Shown one piece after another: positions 8,494-12,362 of a stretch of DNA of 19,359 bases. The first letter of the stretch is position 1; each line of letters starts with the position of its first letter. The notes under the pieces are model-generated. The model was not told the origin of the DNA and did no database searches. It saw only the letters and a program-made list of their open reading frames with translations. The translations under genes were made by a program, and so were the position numbers. This DNA comes from Candidatus Aenigmatarchaeota archaeon (GTDB taxonomy: Archaea; Aenigmatarchaeota; Aenigmatarchaeia; Aenigmatarchaeales; JACQIB01): the NCBI GenBank assembly GCA_038999215.1, contig JAWABM010000013.1, positions 1 to 19,359 on the forward strand, in the 5' to 3' direction.

Positions 8494-8913
8494 CTAGGCG
8501 GCCTTCCTTGAGCCGTACCAGGCCACGCCCAGCAGGGCAGTGAGCGCCGCCATGCCCAGCAGTATCAGCGTGCCGCTGCCTTTTATCCTGATTATTATGT
8601 CTATTATGCCCTGGGCGAAGTCCGGGGTGCCCGCGGGCACCTGTATCATGCCGATGAAAAAATCGCCTATGATTATTATGAGGCCCAGGCCGAGCGTCAG
8701 GAAAAGTATCATCATGAAAAGGGACTTGAAAATGCTTGATCCTGCCGAAGGCAGGGCCGCAGCCTTCCCGCCCCCCTTTATTATGGTAGGCACGTGGTCT
8801 GCGCAGTACACTCCCTGCGCCGTCGGCCTTGCGCAGTTCTCGCAAACGACCTTCCCGCAGGTCTGGCAGCGCCATTCGCCTTCCCCCTTTCCGCACCTTT
8901 CGCAGACCGCCAT
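8494..8913 (-). CDS. Zn-finger (CxxC x3 plus CxxH, B-box-like) protein with two TM helices
   Basis: MAVCERC...CQTCGKVVCENC...YCADH followed by two hydrophobic segments. Alternative ATG at 8937. Confidence 0.75.
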   Translation of the reverse strand: MAVCERCGKGEGEWRCQTCGKVVCENCARPTAQGVYCADHVPTIIKGGGKAAALPSAGSSIFKSLFMMILFLTLGLGLIIIIGDFFIGMIQVPAGTPDFAQGIIDIIIRIKGSGTLILLGMAALTALLGVAWYGSRKAA

Positions 8914-8944: not shown

Positions 8945-10129
8945 CTATGCCGTCAGGCCCCAGCCTATGAGCTTCCACCTGTCGCCGACGTTCCTGCTTA
9001 TCGCCGCTCTCTCGTTCTGGCTCATAACGACCGGTATCCTGAGGCTCACCTCGGCCACGCCTTTCTTCAGCGACATCACCGCCCCCACTGTCCTCGACGT
9101 CCCCACGATTACCATCAGGTTCTCGCCCTGCTTCACCGGTTCCGCGTCCTTGAACAGGTTGAGCTTGAGTCTGAGCGAGCCGCTTATCGCAGGCAGCTTG
9201 CCTGGCAGGCCCACGACGCTTCCAGAGACGTTGTCCGCCTTCGTGAGCAGCGGGTCCAGCTTTGTCATCACCCCCACTAGGCCTCCCGGCCCTGCTTCCT
9301 CAAGATTCTTCGAAGCCTTCTGCAGCCCGACTATCTCTGTGGTTATTGTTTGCCATTTCTCGCCTATCTTCACAGGAGCTATCTCAACCTGCTCGCCGAC
9401 TTTCAGCTTGCCTGCGAGTATGGCCCCGCCCAGAACTCCTCCTTTCAGCTTGTCCGGCTCGATTCCCGGCTTGTTGATGTCAAAGCTGCGCACAACGAGC
9501 ATCCTCGGATTGGCTTCGGGGTCCCTTTTCGGCGTCGGCACGAACTCCTGTATGGCCTCCAGCACAAGGTCGATGTTGAGCTTCTGCTGCGCGGAGACCG
9601 GGATTATGGGCGCGTTCTCCGCGACGGTACCCTTCACGAACTCTTTTATCTGCCTGTAGCTCTCTCTCGCCCCTGCTTCGTCGACGAGGTCTATCTTGTT
9701 CTGCACGATTATGATGTTCTTTATCCCAGAGATGTCCAGCGCCAGCAGGTGCTCGGCAGTCTGCGGCTGCGGGCACTTCTCGTTCGCTGCGATTATCAGC
9801 AGTGCGCCATCCATGAGGCTTGCGCCTGCGAGCACGGTCGCCATCAGGGTCTCGTGCCCCGGAGCGTCAACGAAGGATATTGTCCGAAGCGGCTCCGCCT
9901 TCTCCATGCAGCCTAGGCACTTGTCGGCGCTCAGCGTGCGCTTGCATTTCGGGCACCTGTATATCGTCGCGTCTGCGTAGCCGAGCTTTATCGTGATGCC
10001 TCGCTTAAGCTCTTCGGAATGCAGAGCAGGCCATTTGCCGCTTATGGCCTCCACAAGGGTGGACTTCCCGTGGTCCACGTGGCCAAGTGTCCCTATGTTG
10101 ACCTCAGGTATGAGCCTCGGATCGGTTAT
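8945..10129 (-). CDS. eif2g: Translation initiation factor aIF2 gamma subunit (394 aa; apparent ATA start)
   Basis: PEVNIGTLGHVDHGKST, EELKRGITIKLGY, Zn knuckle CPKC..CLGC, DAPGHE, QNKID, SAQQ, RSFDINKPG, WKLIGWG. The ORF-track start (GTG 10078) lies inside the P-loop. The frame is open to ATA 10129, which is preceded by an in-frame TGA. Confidence 0.96.
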   Translation of the reverse strand: MTDPRLIPEVNIGTLGHVDHGKSTLVEAISGKWPALHSEELKRGITIKLGYADATIYRCPKCKRTLSADKCLGCMEKAEPLRTISFVDAPGHETLMATVLAGASLMDGALLIIAANEKCPQPQTAEHLLALDISGIKNIIIVQNKIDLVDEAGARESYRQIKEFVKGTVAENAPIIPVSAQQKLNIDLVLEAIQEFVPTPKRDPEANPRMLVVRSFDINKPGIEPDKLKGGVLGGAILAGKLKVGEQVEIAPVKIGEKWQTITTEIVGLQKASKNLEEAGPGGLVGVMTKLDPLLTKADNVSGSVVGLPGKLPAISGSLRLKLNLFKDAEPVKQGENLMVIVGTSRTVGAVMSLKKGVAEVSLRIPVVMSQNERAAISRNVGDRWKLIGWGLTA

Positions 10130-10140
10130 TCAGTTCACCT

Positions 10141-10563
10141 TCATTTTTTCTTCTTGCCGGCAGGCGCTTCCTGCTTTTTCTCCTCCTTCGGCTTCGGGAC
10201 CCAGCCTATTATGGTCGCTATGTCGCCTTCGCCCTCCACCACCTTCGCGTTGACCTGCGCTATTGATTCGGATATCCTGTTCCCGCGGACGTATTTCCTC
10301 TTCTTCTGGCCTTCCTTTGCCGGCCTGAAGCCCGTGCCCTTCGTGAGCAGCAGCTTCCTCCTTTCCCCGCCCTCAAGGTCGCGCTTCATCGGGAATCCGT
10401 CCTTGTCTGACCCGCCCGTTACTTCCAGCGTGAAGCCGGCGAGCCCTATGGCCGAGCCTTCGAACCTGTCCCCTATCTTGAGTCCGATCAGAGAAGGAGC
10501 GTCCTTTTCCATCTGGTAGCTCTTCCTTGTCTTGGGTTCGTTTATGACTATCTTGAACGGCAT
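10141..10563 (-). CDS. rps6e: 30S ribosomal protein eS6
   Basis: FKIVINEPKT, LIGLKIGD, LEVTGGSDKDGFPM, GQKKRKYVRGN..SE.IAQVN. SD GGAGGTG upstream. Confidence 0.97.
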   Translation of the reverse strand: MPFKIVINEPKTRKSYQMEKDAPSLIGLKIGDRFEGSAIGLAGFTLEVTGGSDKDGFPMKRDLEGGERRKLLLTKGTGFRPAKEGQKKRKYVRGNRISESIAQVNAKVVEGEGDIATIIGWVPKPKEEKKQEAPAGKKKK

Positions 10564-10643: not shown

Positions 10644-12362
10644 CTATTTGCCGAGAAGCTCCCTTGCGAGCTTTGCCTCAGGCATGCCGTATTTGTCAAG
10701 GACCTTCAGGTCCTCCCTGCCAACGGATGTGACGAGGATGTCGCCCTCTTTTATCTGTCGGCCCACGGTGGGTCCGTCTATCGAGACCGCCACGCGCTGG
10801 CCTTTCTCCGCCTCCTCAACGCCGACGTTCTCCACCTGTATCGCCTTCACTGTGCCGACCTTTGAGCCGTCCTTCTTCCTTAATGCCGCTCCCGGCCTCA
10901 GCCTTCCGTCAAGAACCTCGACTCCGACTATCGCGGGGTCGTTCTGCCTGAACACGAAGCCTTTGAGAAGTTCGATTTTCGCCGGCATGTTTATTCTGGC
11001 CAGTTCCTCCCTCTTCTCAATCTCCTTCTGCTGCTCTGCCCACTTGTCGTATTCCTCGAACAGCGCGTAGATGATGTTGCTCCTGAACACCTTTATCCCC
11101 CTGCTCTTCGCCTCCTGCTCCACGTCCGCGGCGAGCGGCAGGTTGAACACGAATATGACCCTGTTGTACTTGTCAGCGACGGTCTCCATCTCCACGACTT
11201 CCTTCTTTGTCAGCGGGCCCACGCCGGCCTTGTTTATCTTCATGTTCCTCTGCTTCAGCATGTGAATAAGGGCCTCCACGCTGCCGAGCGTGTCCGCCTT
11301 GAGCATCACGCCTTCCCCGCCGCACACGCCGAAGTCGCCGCAGAGCTCCTCCCTCAGCTCCTCCTTAGCCTCCCCGACGCCCTCTTCGCCGCGCAGCGCG
11401 ATTATGGGCGAGCCTGCTATCGCCGCTTCGAGCCCTGGCGCGGATATCTTCACCCCCGCGGCCGCGCCGACGCGCTCCACCTGCTCGAACTCCTTCTCGA
11501 CCCTTATGTCCCTGAGCGGCTTCGGTTTGAGCAGGGCCTTTATCTTCGTGACTATCGGATCCGCCCCGCCGATGACGATGGTGTCGCCCTTCCTTATCTC
11601 TCCGTCGTAAAGGATCATGTCGGCCGTGAGGCCGAGCCCGCGGACTTCCTTTATTTCCAGTATCGAGCCCCTCCCGACATCGGATGTTATCCCTATCTTG
11701 TCCTTGAGGAAGTTCTGCGCAAGGCCTGTGAGCATCATAAGAAGGTCTGGCACGCCTTCGCCCGTTATTCCCGAGCACGGCACTATGGCCACCTGCTTCC
11801 TGAAGTCGTTCACCCTGTCGTACCTCTCCGAGTCGAAGCCGCGCTCGCTCAGCTGGCCTACGAGCTTGTACACCGCAGCGTCGACCTCTTCCCTGACTCT
11901 TTCCGGTTGCCTTGCCAGCGTCTCGGAGAAGTTCGCGTCCTTCGAGGATATCCAGCCGCTTAGCTTGTCCACTTTCGTTGCGGCTATTATGAACGGCGTC
12001 TTGAACTGCTTGAGCAGCTGTATGCTCTCGTCTGTCTGCGGCTTTATGCCCTCCAGCAGATCTATGACGAGCACCGCTATGTCGGCTATGCTCGAGCCGC
12101 GCCGCCTTATGCTGGTGAAGGCCTCGTGCCCGGGCGTGTCCAGGAAAAGCAGGCCAGGTATCTTCACGTCCAGCTTCATCTTCGTGATGAGGCCCCCGCA
12201 GGTCTTTCTTATGGCCTCTATCGGTATCTCGCTCGCGCCAGAGTGCTGAGTGATGTAGCCGGCCTCCTTCTCAGCCACGGCCGTGCCTCTTATCCTGTCG
12301 AGCAGCGTGGTCTTGCCGTGGTCCACGTGGCCCATCACGGCGACTATGGGTTGCCTGAGCAT
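10644..12362 (-). CDS. infB: Translation initiation factor aIF5B (IF2 homolog)
   Basis: MLRQPIVAVMGHVDHGKTTLLD, ITQHSGA, DTPGHEAF, TKVD, KADTLGSVEAL, VFRQNDPAIVGVEV. No intein. ATG 12362 follows GTGAT. Confidence 0.97.
   Translation of the reverse strand: MLRQPIVAVMGHVDHGKTTLLDRIRGTAVAEKEAGYITQHSGASEIPIEAIRKTCGGLITKMKLDVKIPGLLFLDTPGHEAFTSIRRRGSSIADIAVLVIDLLEGIKPQTDESIQLLKQFKTPFIIAATKVDKLSGWISSKDANFSETLARQPERVREEVDAAVYKLVGQLSERGFDSERYDRVNDFRKQVAIVPCSGITGEGVPDLLMMLTGLAQNFLKDKIGITSDVGRGSILEIKEVRGLGLTADMILYDGEIRKGDTIVIGGADPIVTKIKALLKPKPLRDIRVEKEFEQVERVGAAAGVKISAPGLEAAIAGSPIIALRGEEGVGEAKEELREELCGDFGVCGGEGVMLKADTLGSVEALIHMLKQRNMKINKAGVGPLTKKEVVEMETVADKYNRVIFVFNLPLAADVEQEAKSRGIKVFRSNIIYALFEEYDKWAEQQKEIEKREELARINMPAKIELLKGFVFRQNDPAIVGVEVLDGRLRPGAALRKKDGSKVGTVKAIQVENVGVEEAEKGQRVAVSIDGPTVGRQIKEGDILVTSVGREDLKVLDKYGMPEAKLARELLGK

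Follow-up and report, generated by a model that had tools for sequence, protein, structure and literature searches.

Where does translation of the archaeal initiation factor aIF2-gamma begin when its gene offers no canonical start codon, and could the codon used in its place have a regulatory role? The question is raised by a 19,359 nt contig of a Candidatus Aenigmatarchaeota archaeon (assembly GCA_038999215.1, contig JAWABM010000013.1), all of which is referred to here as the window, and in which eif2g, the gene for aIF2-gamma, follows rps6e on the minus strand. A first-pass annotation of this DNA had proposed that eif2g starts at AUA and that the factor sets its own level through this weak codon, as bacterial infC does. 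Comparison with relatives gives good support to the AUA start, through an aligned ATG in one ortholog and codons with a middle T behind a Shine-Dalgarno (SD) site in others. The regulatory idea stands in part: weak starts appear selective for aIF2-gamma, aIF1 and MetRS, but no conserved ATA specific to eif2g was seen, and the closer counterpart of infC is aIF1, not aIF2-gamma. Stringency-sensing, infC-like feedback through weak starts would be the best explanation of the pattern, with a probability of roughly one in two.

The start region of eif2g

Read on the minus strand, the rps6e stop (TGA, 10143–10141) is followed by GGTGA (10139–10135), the spacer ACTGA, an in-frame TGA (10132–10130) and ATA (10129–10127), after which the frame continues ACC GAT CCG AGG CTC ATA CCT GAG. 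Up to GHVDH this frame holds only 15 open codons, and the earlier statement that none of them is ATG, GTG or TTG is correct. The first GTG (10078) encodes the Val of GHVDH. Because this first canonical codon lies within the P-loop, initiation at a canonical codon would truncate the GTP-binding motif. The P-loop itself is intact, and the protein scores 563.4 bits against PRK04000 (NCBIfam cut-off 315) and 545.7 bits against TIGR03680 (cut-off 514.5). Its nearest named relatives are from Aenigmatarchaeota, and the genome has one copy of the gene. The surrounding minus-strand run, rpl7ae-rps28e-rpl24e-infB-rps6e-eif2g, is the usual archaeal set. Coordinates are collected in Table 1.

Table 1. Features of the eif2g locus, with positions in the window
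Feature	Position	Strand	Remarks
eif2g (aIF2-gamma)	8945..10129	-	394 codons counted from the proposed ATA, plus stop; intact, one copy
Proposed start codon ATA (AUA)	10127..10129	-	No in-frame ATG/GTG/TTG up to the P-loop; aligned with ortholog L398
SD site AGGTGA	10135..10140	-	5 nt upstream of ATA; its own GTG in frame, blocked by TGA
Mini-ORF of 4 codons (MKVN, stop)	10130..10144	-	ATG overlaps the rps6e stop; TGA abuts ATA
P-loop GHVDHGKST	10058..10084	-	Contains the first in-frame GTG (10078)
rps6e, upstream cistron	10141..10563	-	Ends 11 nt before ATA
infB (aIF5B)	10644..12362	-	Same gene run as eif2g; ordinary ATG start

The 3′ end of the 16S rRNA of this genome (GGATCACCTCC) is complementary to the eif2g SD, with a pairing energy of -8.5 kcal/mol. 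The 5 nt between GGTGA and ATA agree, as had been noted, with the spacing at six other genes of the window, where GTGA precedes ATG by 4 nt (rpoA', rpoB and rpl7ae) or 5 nt (ogg, infB and a surface protein). Judged on sequence evidence, translation of aIF2-gamma very probably begins at ATA, and the predicted N-terminus would be (M)TDPRLIPEVNIGTLGHVDHGK / (M)TDPRLIPEVNIG. An exact look-up of the two translations in a protein collection found neither.

The leader also contains the short ORF that the first-pass annotation had read as GTG-AAC-TGA. An in-frame ORF does end at this TGA, but it is longer, beginning at ATG 10144 and reading ATG AAG GTG AAC TGA in full (10144–10130); it was not seen in relatives. 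Its ATG is in frame with eif2g and overlaps the rps6e stop, a layout reported to couple translation in archaea (PMC6728339), and the ortholog L400 begins MKVNPKLVPE, resembling the mini-ORF. Translation might therefore start at ATG 10144 by termination-reinitiation from rps6e, the TGA at 10132–10130 being read through, or else a recent nonsense mutation or an error in the assembly, with relatives starting at the GTG of the SD, which is in frame and open in most of them. Such a start is quite improbable. No sign of UGA readthrough or reassignment was found, TGA being the commonest stop in this genome (309, against 144 TAA and 141 TAG) and not being conserved at this place among relatives, although selenocysteine machinery was not searched for. 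A nonsense change or error is at odds with a single-copy gene that is otherwise intact. A 242 nt contig from a public run (depth 2.1) is identical over 9892–10133 and has the same TGA and ATA, a weak confirmation, as both fall within its last 7 letters and the run is possibly the source of the assembly; no public-run contig spans the eif2g start with 31 letters on both flanks, and no RNA run was listed among the sequencing runs. As for the relatives, a GTG start leaves unexplained why three unrelated proteins have a middle-T codon three codons further on, and that GTG is blocked or out of frame at eight loci.

A small bulge-helix-bulge intron whose splicing would take out the TGA and connect ATG 10144 with eif2g is the least probable reading of all. 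The idea has a precedent of a kind in three orthologs (L022, L030 and L398), in which the P-loop codons of eif2g are interrupted by hairpin-forming inserts of about 30 nt that resemble bulge-helix-bulge introns. At the window's start region, however, none of 80 frame-restoring cuts gives a 4 bp central helix (the best has 3 of 4 pairs, and no more than 1 of 3 flanking pairs forms), and the fold of this region is weak, whereas the inserts of L022 and L030 form long hairpins. A same-genus genome (L394/L002) has a far longer insert at the same P-loop position.

Start codons of eif2g orthologs

For comparison, 93 eif2g loci were reduced to 85 distinct ones after eight had been dropped as duplicate, truncated or lacking an anchor motif. 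The set comprises Aenigmatarchaeota and archaeal genes grouping with them, and related genomes within it are not independent. In ortholog L398 an ATG aligns with the ATA of the window; both stand before TDPRLIPEVNIGTLGH, and the 16 residues after the two codons are identical. Across the set, an SD (GGCG allowed) followed by a non-canonical codon with a middle T is present at 41 of 85 loci, with ATG at 43 and one locus unclassified. The codons involved are TTC, ATA, ATT, GTA, ATC and CTG. No single codon is conserved at this position: it varies, with TTC the commonest, and about half of the loci have ATG.

At 44 of the 85 loci an in-frame codon lies 4–6 nt behind GGTG[A/G/T]: TTC in 17, ATA in 8, ATT in 5, GTA in 4, ATG in 3, ATC in 2, TTT and GTC in one each and others in 3. 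Of the 41 codons at this distance from GGTG that are not ATG, 38 have a middle T, against 1/41 for the preceding and 1/41 for the following codon, and the pattern therefore goes beyond chance. The odd codon is followed by a small residue (A/S/T/P/G) in 24/41, as is ATG in 28/43, with 2/41 and 1/41 at the next two places. The N-terminal tails likewise resemble those of ATG-started proteins (IAEKK/MAEKK, ITEKK/MTEKK and FKKIDE/MKKIDE).

Four loci (the window, L007, L269 and L292) have no canonical codon whatsoever before the conserved motif. At two more (L051 and L064) the GTG of the SD is blocked or out of frame, so that this GTG is unusable as a start at six loci. Among the 38 readable genomes of the window's order, the non-canonical eif2g start is forced in 2, the GTG of the SD is the sole canonical option in 10, 2 are ambiguous and 24 have ATG. 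On a tree of 79 aIF2-gamma proteins (a quick tree, the careful search not having finished) the start state changes 17 times, with at least 7 changes forced by well-supported branches. The weak-start state is therefore old and labile, or has been gained repeatedly.

Outside the phylum, looking further upstream in Woesearchaeota revealed an SD with ATA or ATC at 4 of 10 eif2g loci (L077, L081, L087 and L088) and ATG at the other 6. L081 shares the window's layout, with an in-frame TGA directly 5′ of ATA and a Thr codon after it, and the GTG of the SD is impossible as a start in both L081 and L077. The four Woesearchaeota proteins have a long Lys/Ala-rich N-terminal tail after the weak start. Counting codons behind SD motifs without homology was too noisy to be of use; a broader homology-free count (ATA in 12/192 at a spacer of 5 nt, 3/118 at 6 nt) gives a hint only.

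Genes with predicted weak starts

In this genome aIF1 (G000:C3, minus strand, about 20965) has CTG 6 nt behind GAGGTGG, and its first ATG lies past the zinc-binding cysteines. Among 31 genomes of the order, the aIF1 start is CTG in 17, ATA in 4, GTG in 3 and ATG in 7, and 13 lack any canonical codon close by. In other orders of the phylum ATG prevails, with several ATA and ATC, and of the 24 readable Woesearchaeota-centred loci 23 have ATG and one GTG (6 further loci unread). In Thermococcus-centred loci (L391, L414–L442) aIF1 starts with GTG in 30/30, a milder weak start and one found in organisms amenable to genetics.

MetRS of this genome (G000:C7, plus strand, about 3711) has an SD, 5 nt and GTC. 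An SD followed by NTC is present in 4 of 5 genomes readable for MetRS, with TTC in three relatives (L473, L474 and L246) and one genome unresolved; these putative starts span two subtypes with a mutual identity of 29–33 %. The remaining initiation factors are ordinary: aIF2-alpha has ATG in 29/29 informative loci, aIF2-beta has ATG in 29 and TTG in 1 (n=30), and aIF1A has ATG in 28 and TTG in 1 of 29, so that together they are canonical in 88/88.

Two screens point the same way. Within the large ribosomal-protein operon, aIF1 has a non-canonical start in 12 of the 21 genomes screened, compared with 1/478 genes of the other 30 families. The latter figure derives from nine flagged genes, of which one (rpl19e, L144) was kept and eight were put down to misplaced columns or to a paralog hit, the start lying outside the printed stretch for three of these (rpl23 twice, secY); for aIF1, 14 were flagged and two dropped (one GTG, one ATG). 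The second screen covered 378 genes of this genome that have orthologs in partial copies of three relatives. A non-canonical start is forced for eif2g and aIF1 alone, a conservative result since cases with a canonical codon close behind go undetected, MetRS among them. Genome-wide relaxed start-codon use was not found, ordinary SD-led genes being canonical, with scattered exceptions, in the 378-gene screen and in the operon. Predicted weak starts are gene-selective, falling on aIF1, aIF2-gamma and MetRS as opposed to aIF2-alpha, aIF2-beta, aIF1A and the ribosomal-protein genes. By sequence comparison, the codons on these genes for the supply and checking of Met-tRNAi are mostly CUG for aIF1, AUA, AUU, AUC, UUC, GUA or CUG for aIF2-gamma and UUC or GUC for MetRS.

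Four more genes of this genome, including a PQ-loop-like gene (ATT) and a glycosyltransferase (ACG), have an SD with ATT, ACG, ATC or TTC but lack a clear canonical start; their orthologs are lacking or uninformative, and they are listed as unconfirmed candidates (C7 plus, ~31075; C18 minus, ~1966; C24 plus, ~4925; C3 plus, ~28577). Elsewhere in the genome, a gene presumed to be RadB-like (G000:C12, minus strand, near 200) is interrupted by an in-frame TAA some 58 codons ahead of its end; genome G002 has a sense codon at this point.

Other changes to the initiation machinery were considered. An altered initiator tRNA was rejected, as the candidate shows A1-U72 and a CAU anticodon, and its anticodon stem contains three G-C pairs. 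The gene (G000:C10, minus strand, about 8780–8900) carries an insert of ~40 nt in the D-arm and is missed by ARAGORN at default settings. A lineage-specific change in switch I of aIF2-gamma was not seen, the GYAD/GFAD pattern being common to outgroups, and loss of aIF1 or aIF1A is excluded by the presence of each in 39/41 genomes.

Genomic context and the possibility of a fixed brake

Where eif2g stands directly behind rps6e its start is weak in 25/31 cases, compared with 11/34 where there is no adjacent upstream ORF. Likewise, aIF1 sits inside the S10/spc operon. These locations raise the possibility that the AUA start is real but acts as a fixed brake, lowering the output of a factor needed in fewer copies within a strongly transcribed ribosomal-protein operon, with no feedback. 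The codons are suited to this: in Escherichia coli AUA, AUC, AUU and CUG are reported to yield 1–2 % of AUG output, and the remaining codons 0.1–1 % (10.1101/063800). Plain throttling of this kind is the main rival to feedback. It is nevertheless the less likely of the two, given that other non-ribosomal genes of the same operon are canonical (rnp1 in 20/20, adk in 11/11), that 11 of the 41 weak-start eif2g genes stand without an adjacent upstream ORF, and that the choice of aIF1, aIF2-gamma and MetRS is left unexplained.

In one family of loci (L006, L011, L013, L015, L021 and L403) another gene is inserted between rps6e and eif2g, which we take to be of CYTH type from its ExExK motif. It is the inserted gene that carries the weak start in five of these genomes, a sixth having the same junction, and eif2g starts at an ATG overlapping the CYTH-type stop (ATGA). 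In this position eif2g may still be gated by translational coupling. Two genomes with other genes inserted behind rps6e keep a weak start on eif2g itself.

A possible feedback on initiation stringency

The feedback proposed here would work as follows. The GGTGA site would place the 30S subunit so that AUA occupies the P site, and Met-tRNAi would start aIF2-gamma there with low efficiency, as comparison suggests. Proofreading by aIF1 and aIF2 would reject most attempts at AUA. With plentiful proofreading the weak starts would be rejected and less factor made; with scarce proofreading they would be accepted, and the supply of aIF1 and aIF2 would follow current stringency. The component activities have been described: aIF1 lets the Sulfolobus solfataricus 30S subunit reject AUU (PMC4705826) and destabilizes SD-positioned complexes, serving proofreading (PMC6237735), aIF2 swings the tRNA out in the absence of a pairing start codon (PMC5103072), and weak initiation sites allow IF3 and eIF1 to hold down their own production (PMC4705826).

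Several observations weigh against this interpretation or the starts on which it is built. All six family-level relatives, including the same-genus genome, have ATG at eif2g, as do 43 of the 85 loci, and here the comparison with close relatives that the first-pass annotation had suggested went against it. The spacer is 5 nt in 35/38 cases, which keeps the GTG of the SD in frame as a rival start, whereas spacers of 4, 5 and 6 nt are about equally common at the ATG starts of this genome (36, 32 and 35). There is no forced TTC case; the in-frame GTG is open in all 17 TTC loci, so that the case for a UUC start comes from the alignment and from the small second residue. In 9/41 weak-start eif2g genes an in-frame ATG lies next to the SD and may be the start, and the same rule applied to 49 readable outgroup eif2g genes flagged three, each with an ATG no more than 2 codons away. 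The starter tRNA is provided by MetRS and aIF2, and any feedback that runs through these two might therefore be positive and not damping. Finally, other weak starts (GTA, ATT and ATC) are scattered over rps6e (L028, L295 and L407), rpl19e (L144), a KH-domain gene (L370 and L386) and orthologs in G010, the last two groups being named from their motifs.

Scatter on unrelated genes, together with the eight different codons at the eif2g start and a state that flips often on the tree, could also reflect neutral drift, in which any middle-U codon is tolerated behind a strong SD and ATG decays by chance without regulation. Drift is improbable in view of the operon genes with the same GGTG site, which stay canonical: 128/174 have ATG, GTG or TTG at a distance of 4–6 nt, and 45 of the remaining 46 show an ATG elsewhere near the start, whereas GGTG-led eif2g sites carry ATG in 3/44 only.

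A wider version of the feedback reading is that MetRS, aIF2-gamma and aIF1, which charge, deliver and proofread the initiator tRNA, form a stringency regulon wired solely via start codons in Aenigmatarchaeota and some Woesearchaeota, with the two-mismatch codons UUC, GUA and GUC as true starts. This extension is tentative and doubtful as a whole. If true, a weak-start set on aIF1, aIF2-gamma and MetRS would extend start-codon feedback from a single factor to the whole initiator-tRNA step, and a genuine UUC start would lengthen the list of natural start codons. An archaeal counterpart to the start-codon feedback known for bacterial IF3 and eukaryotic eIF1 would fill a gap. The weak-start leaders are natural test substrates for the existing Pyrococcus toeprinting system. 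There is a practical side as well, as gene callers in these genomes cut aIF2-gamma within the P-loop or begin it at the GTG of the SD.

Comparison with known systems

In the available parts of four sources (PMC7531240, PMC6412873, PMC4705826 and PMC8211752), the archaeal starts named are AUG, GUG and UUG, and no start-codon feedback is described for archaea. A literature search, with most subscription journals outside its coverage, found no report of a non-AUG start for archaeal aIF2-gamma, aIF1 or MetRS, and no start-stringency autoregulation reported for e/aIF2-gamma. In ribosome profiling of Haloferax volcanii, about 30 % of putative alternative start sites are near-cognate (PMC7261190), and archaeal ribosomes may thus be able to use such codons. 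Those sites are alternative and were set aside by the authors as possible false positives (PMC7261190), whereas the putative start of eif2g would be the sole start of an essential gene. Termination-reinitiation coupling in archaea is described with canonical starts (PMC6728339); ATGA overlaps occur here too, at the mini-ORF and, in relatives, at the CYTH-type/eif2g junction, but the proposed eif2g start is non-canonical and 11 nt behind the rps6e stop.

Eukaryotic eIF1, with its poor AUG context, and eIF5 are autoregulated through initiation sites of their own that sense stringency, and the machinery is homologous (aIF1/eIF1, aIF2/eIF2) (PMC4705826, PMC6237735). Eukaryotes keep AUG and vary the context or uORFs, whereas here the codon itself is changed and its place set by an SD. 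The nearest bacterial parallel is infC, the IF3 gene, which starts with AUU and is translationally autorepressed (PMC4705826, 10.1101/063800), and which is likewise a fidelity-factor gene with a near-cognate codon behind an SD. In the present genome a weak, SD-led start is predicted for both eif2g (ATA) and aIF1 (CTG). Conservation is uneven, at 41/85 loci but 0/6 family relatives for eif2g and 21/31 genomes of the order for aIF1. Selectivity is evident in the operon contrast for aIF1 (12/21 versus 1/478), and both forced genes among the 378 are initiation factors. Discrimination against the factor's own codon has been published for aIF1 versus AUU in S. solfataricus (PMC4705826) and generally for aIF2 (PMC5103072), with no such report for this lineage or for AUA or UUC. 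Unlike infC, eif2g encodes an archaeal, non-homologous factor, the tRNA-delivering GTPase subunit. Several codons are involved, some with two anticodon mismatches, three genes or more are affected, ATG is used by about half of the lineage, and the trait is known here from sequence layout. On that footing, the predicted weak start of eif2g is a real feature, infC- and eIF1-like in layout.
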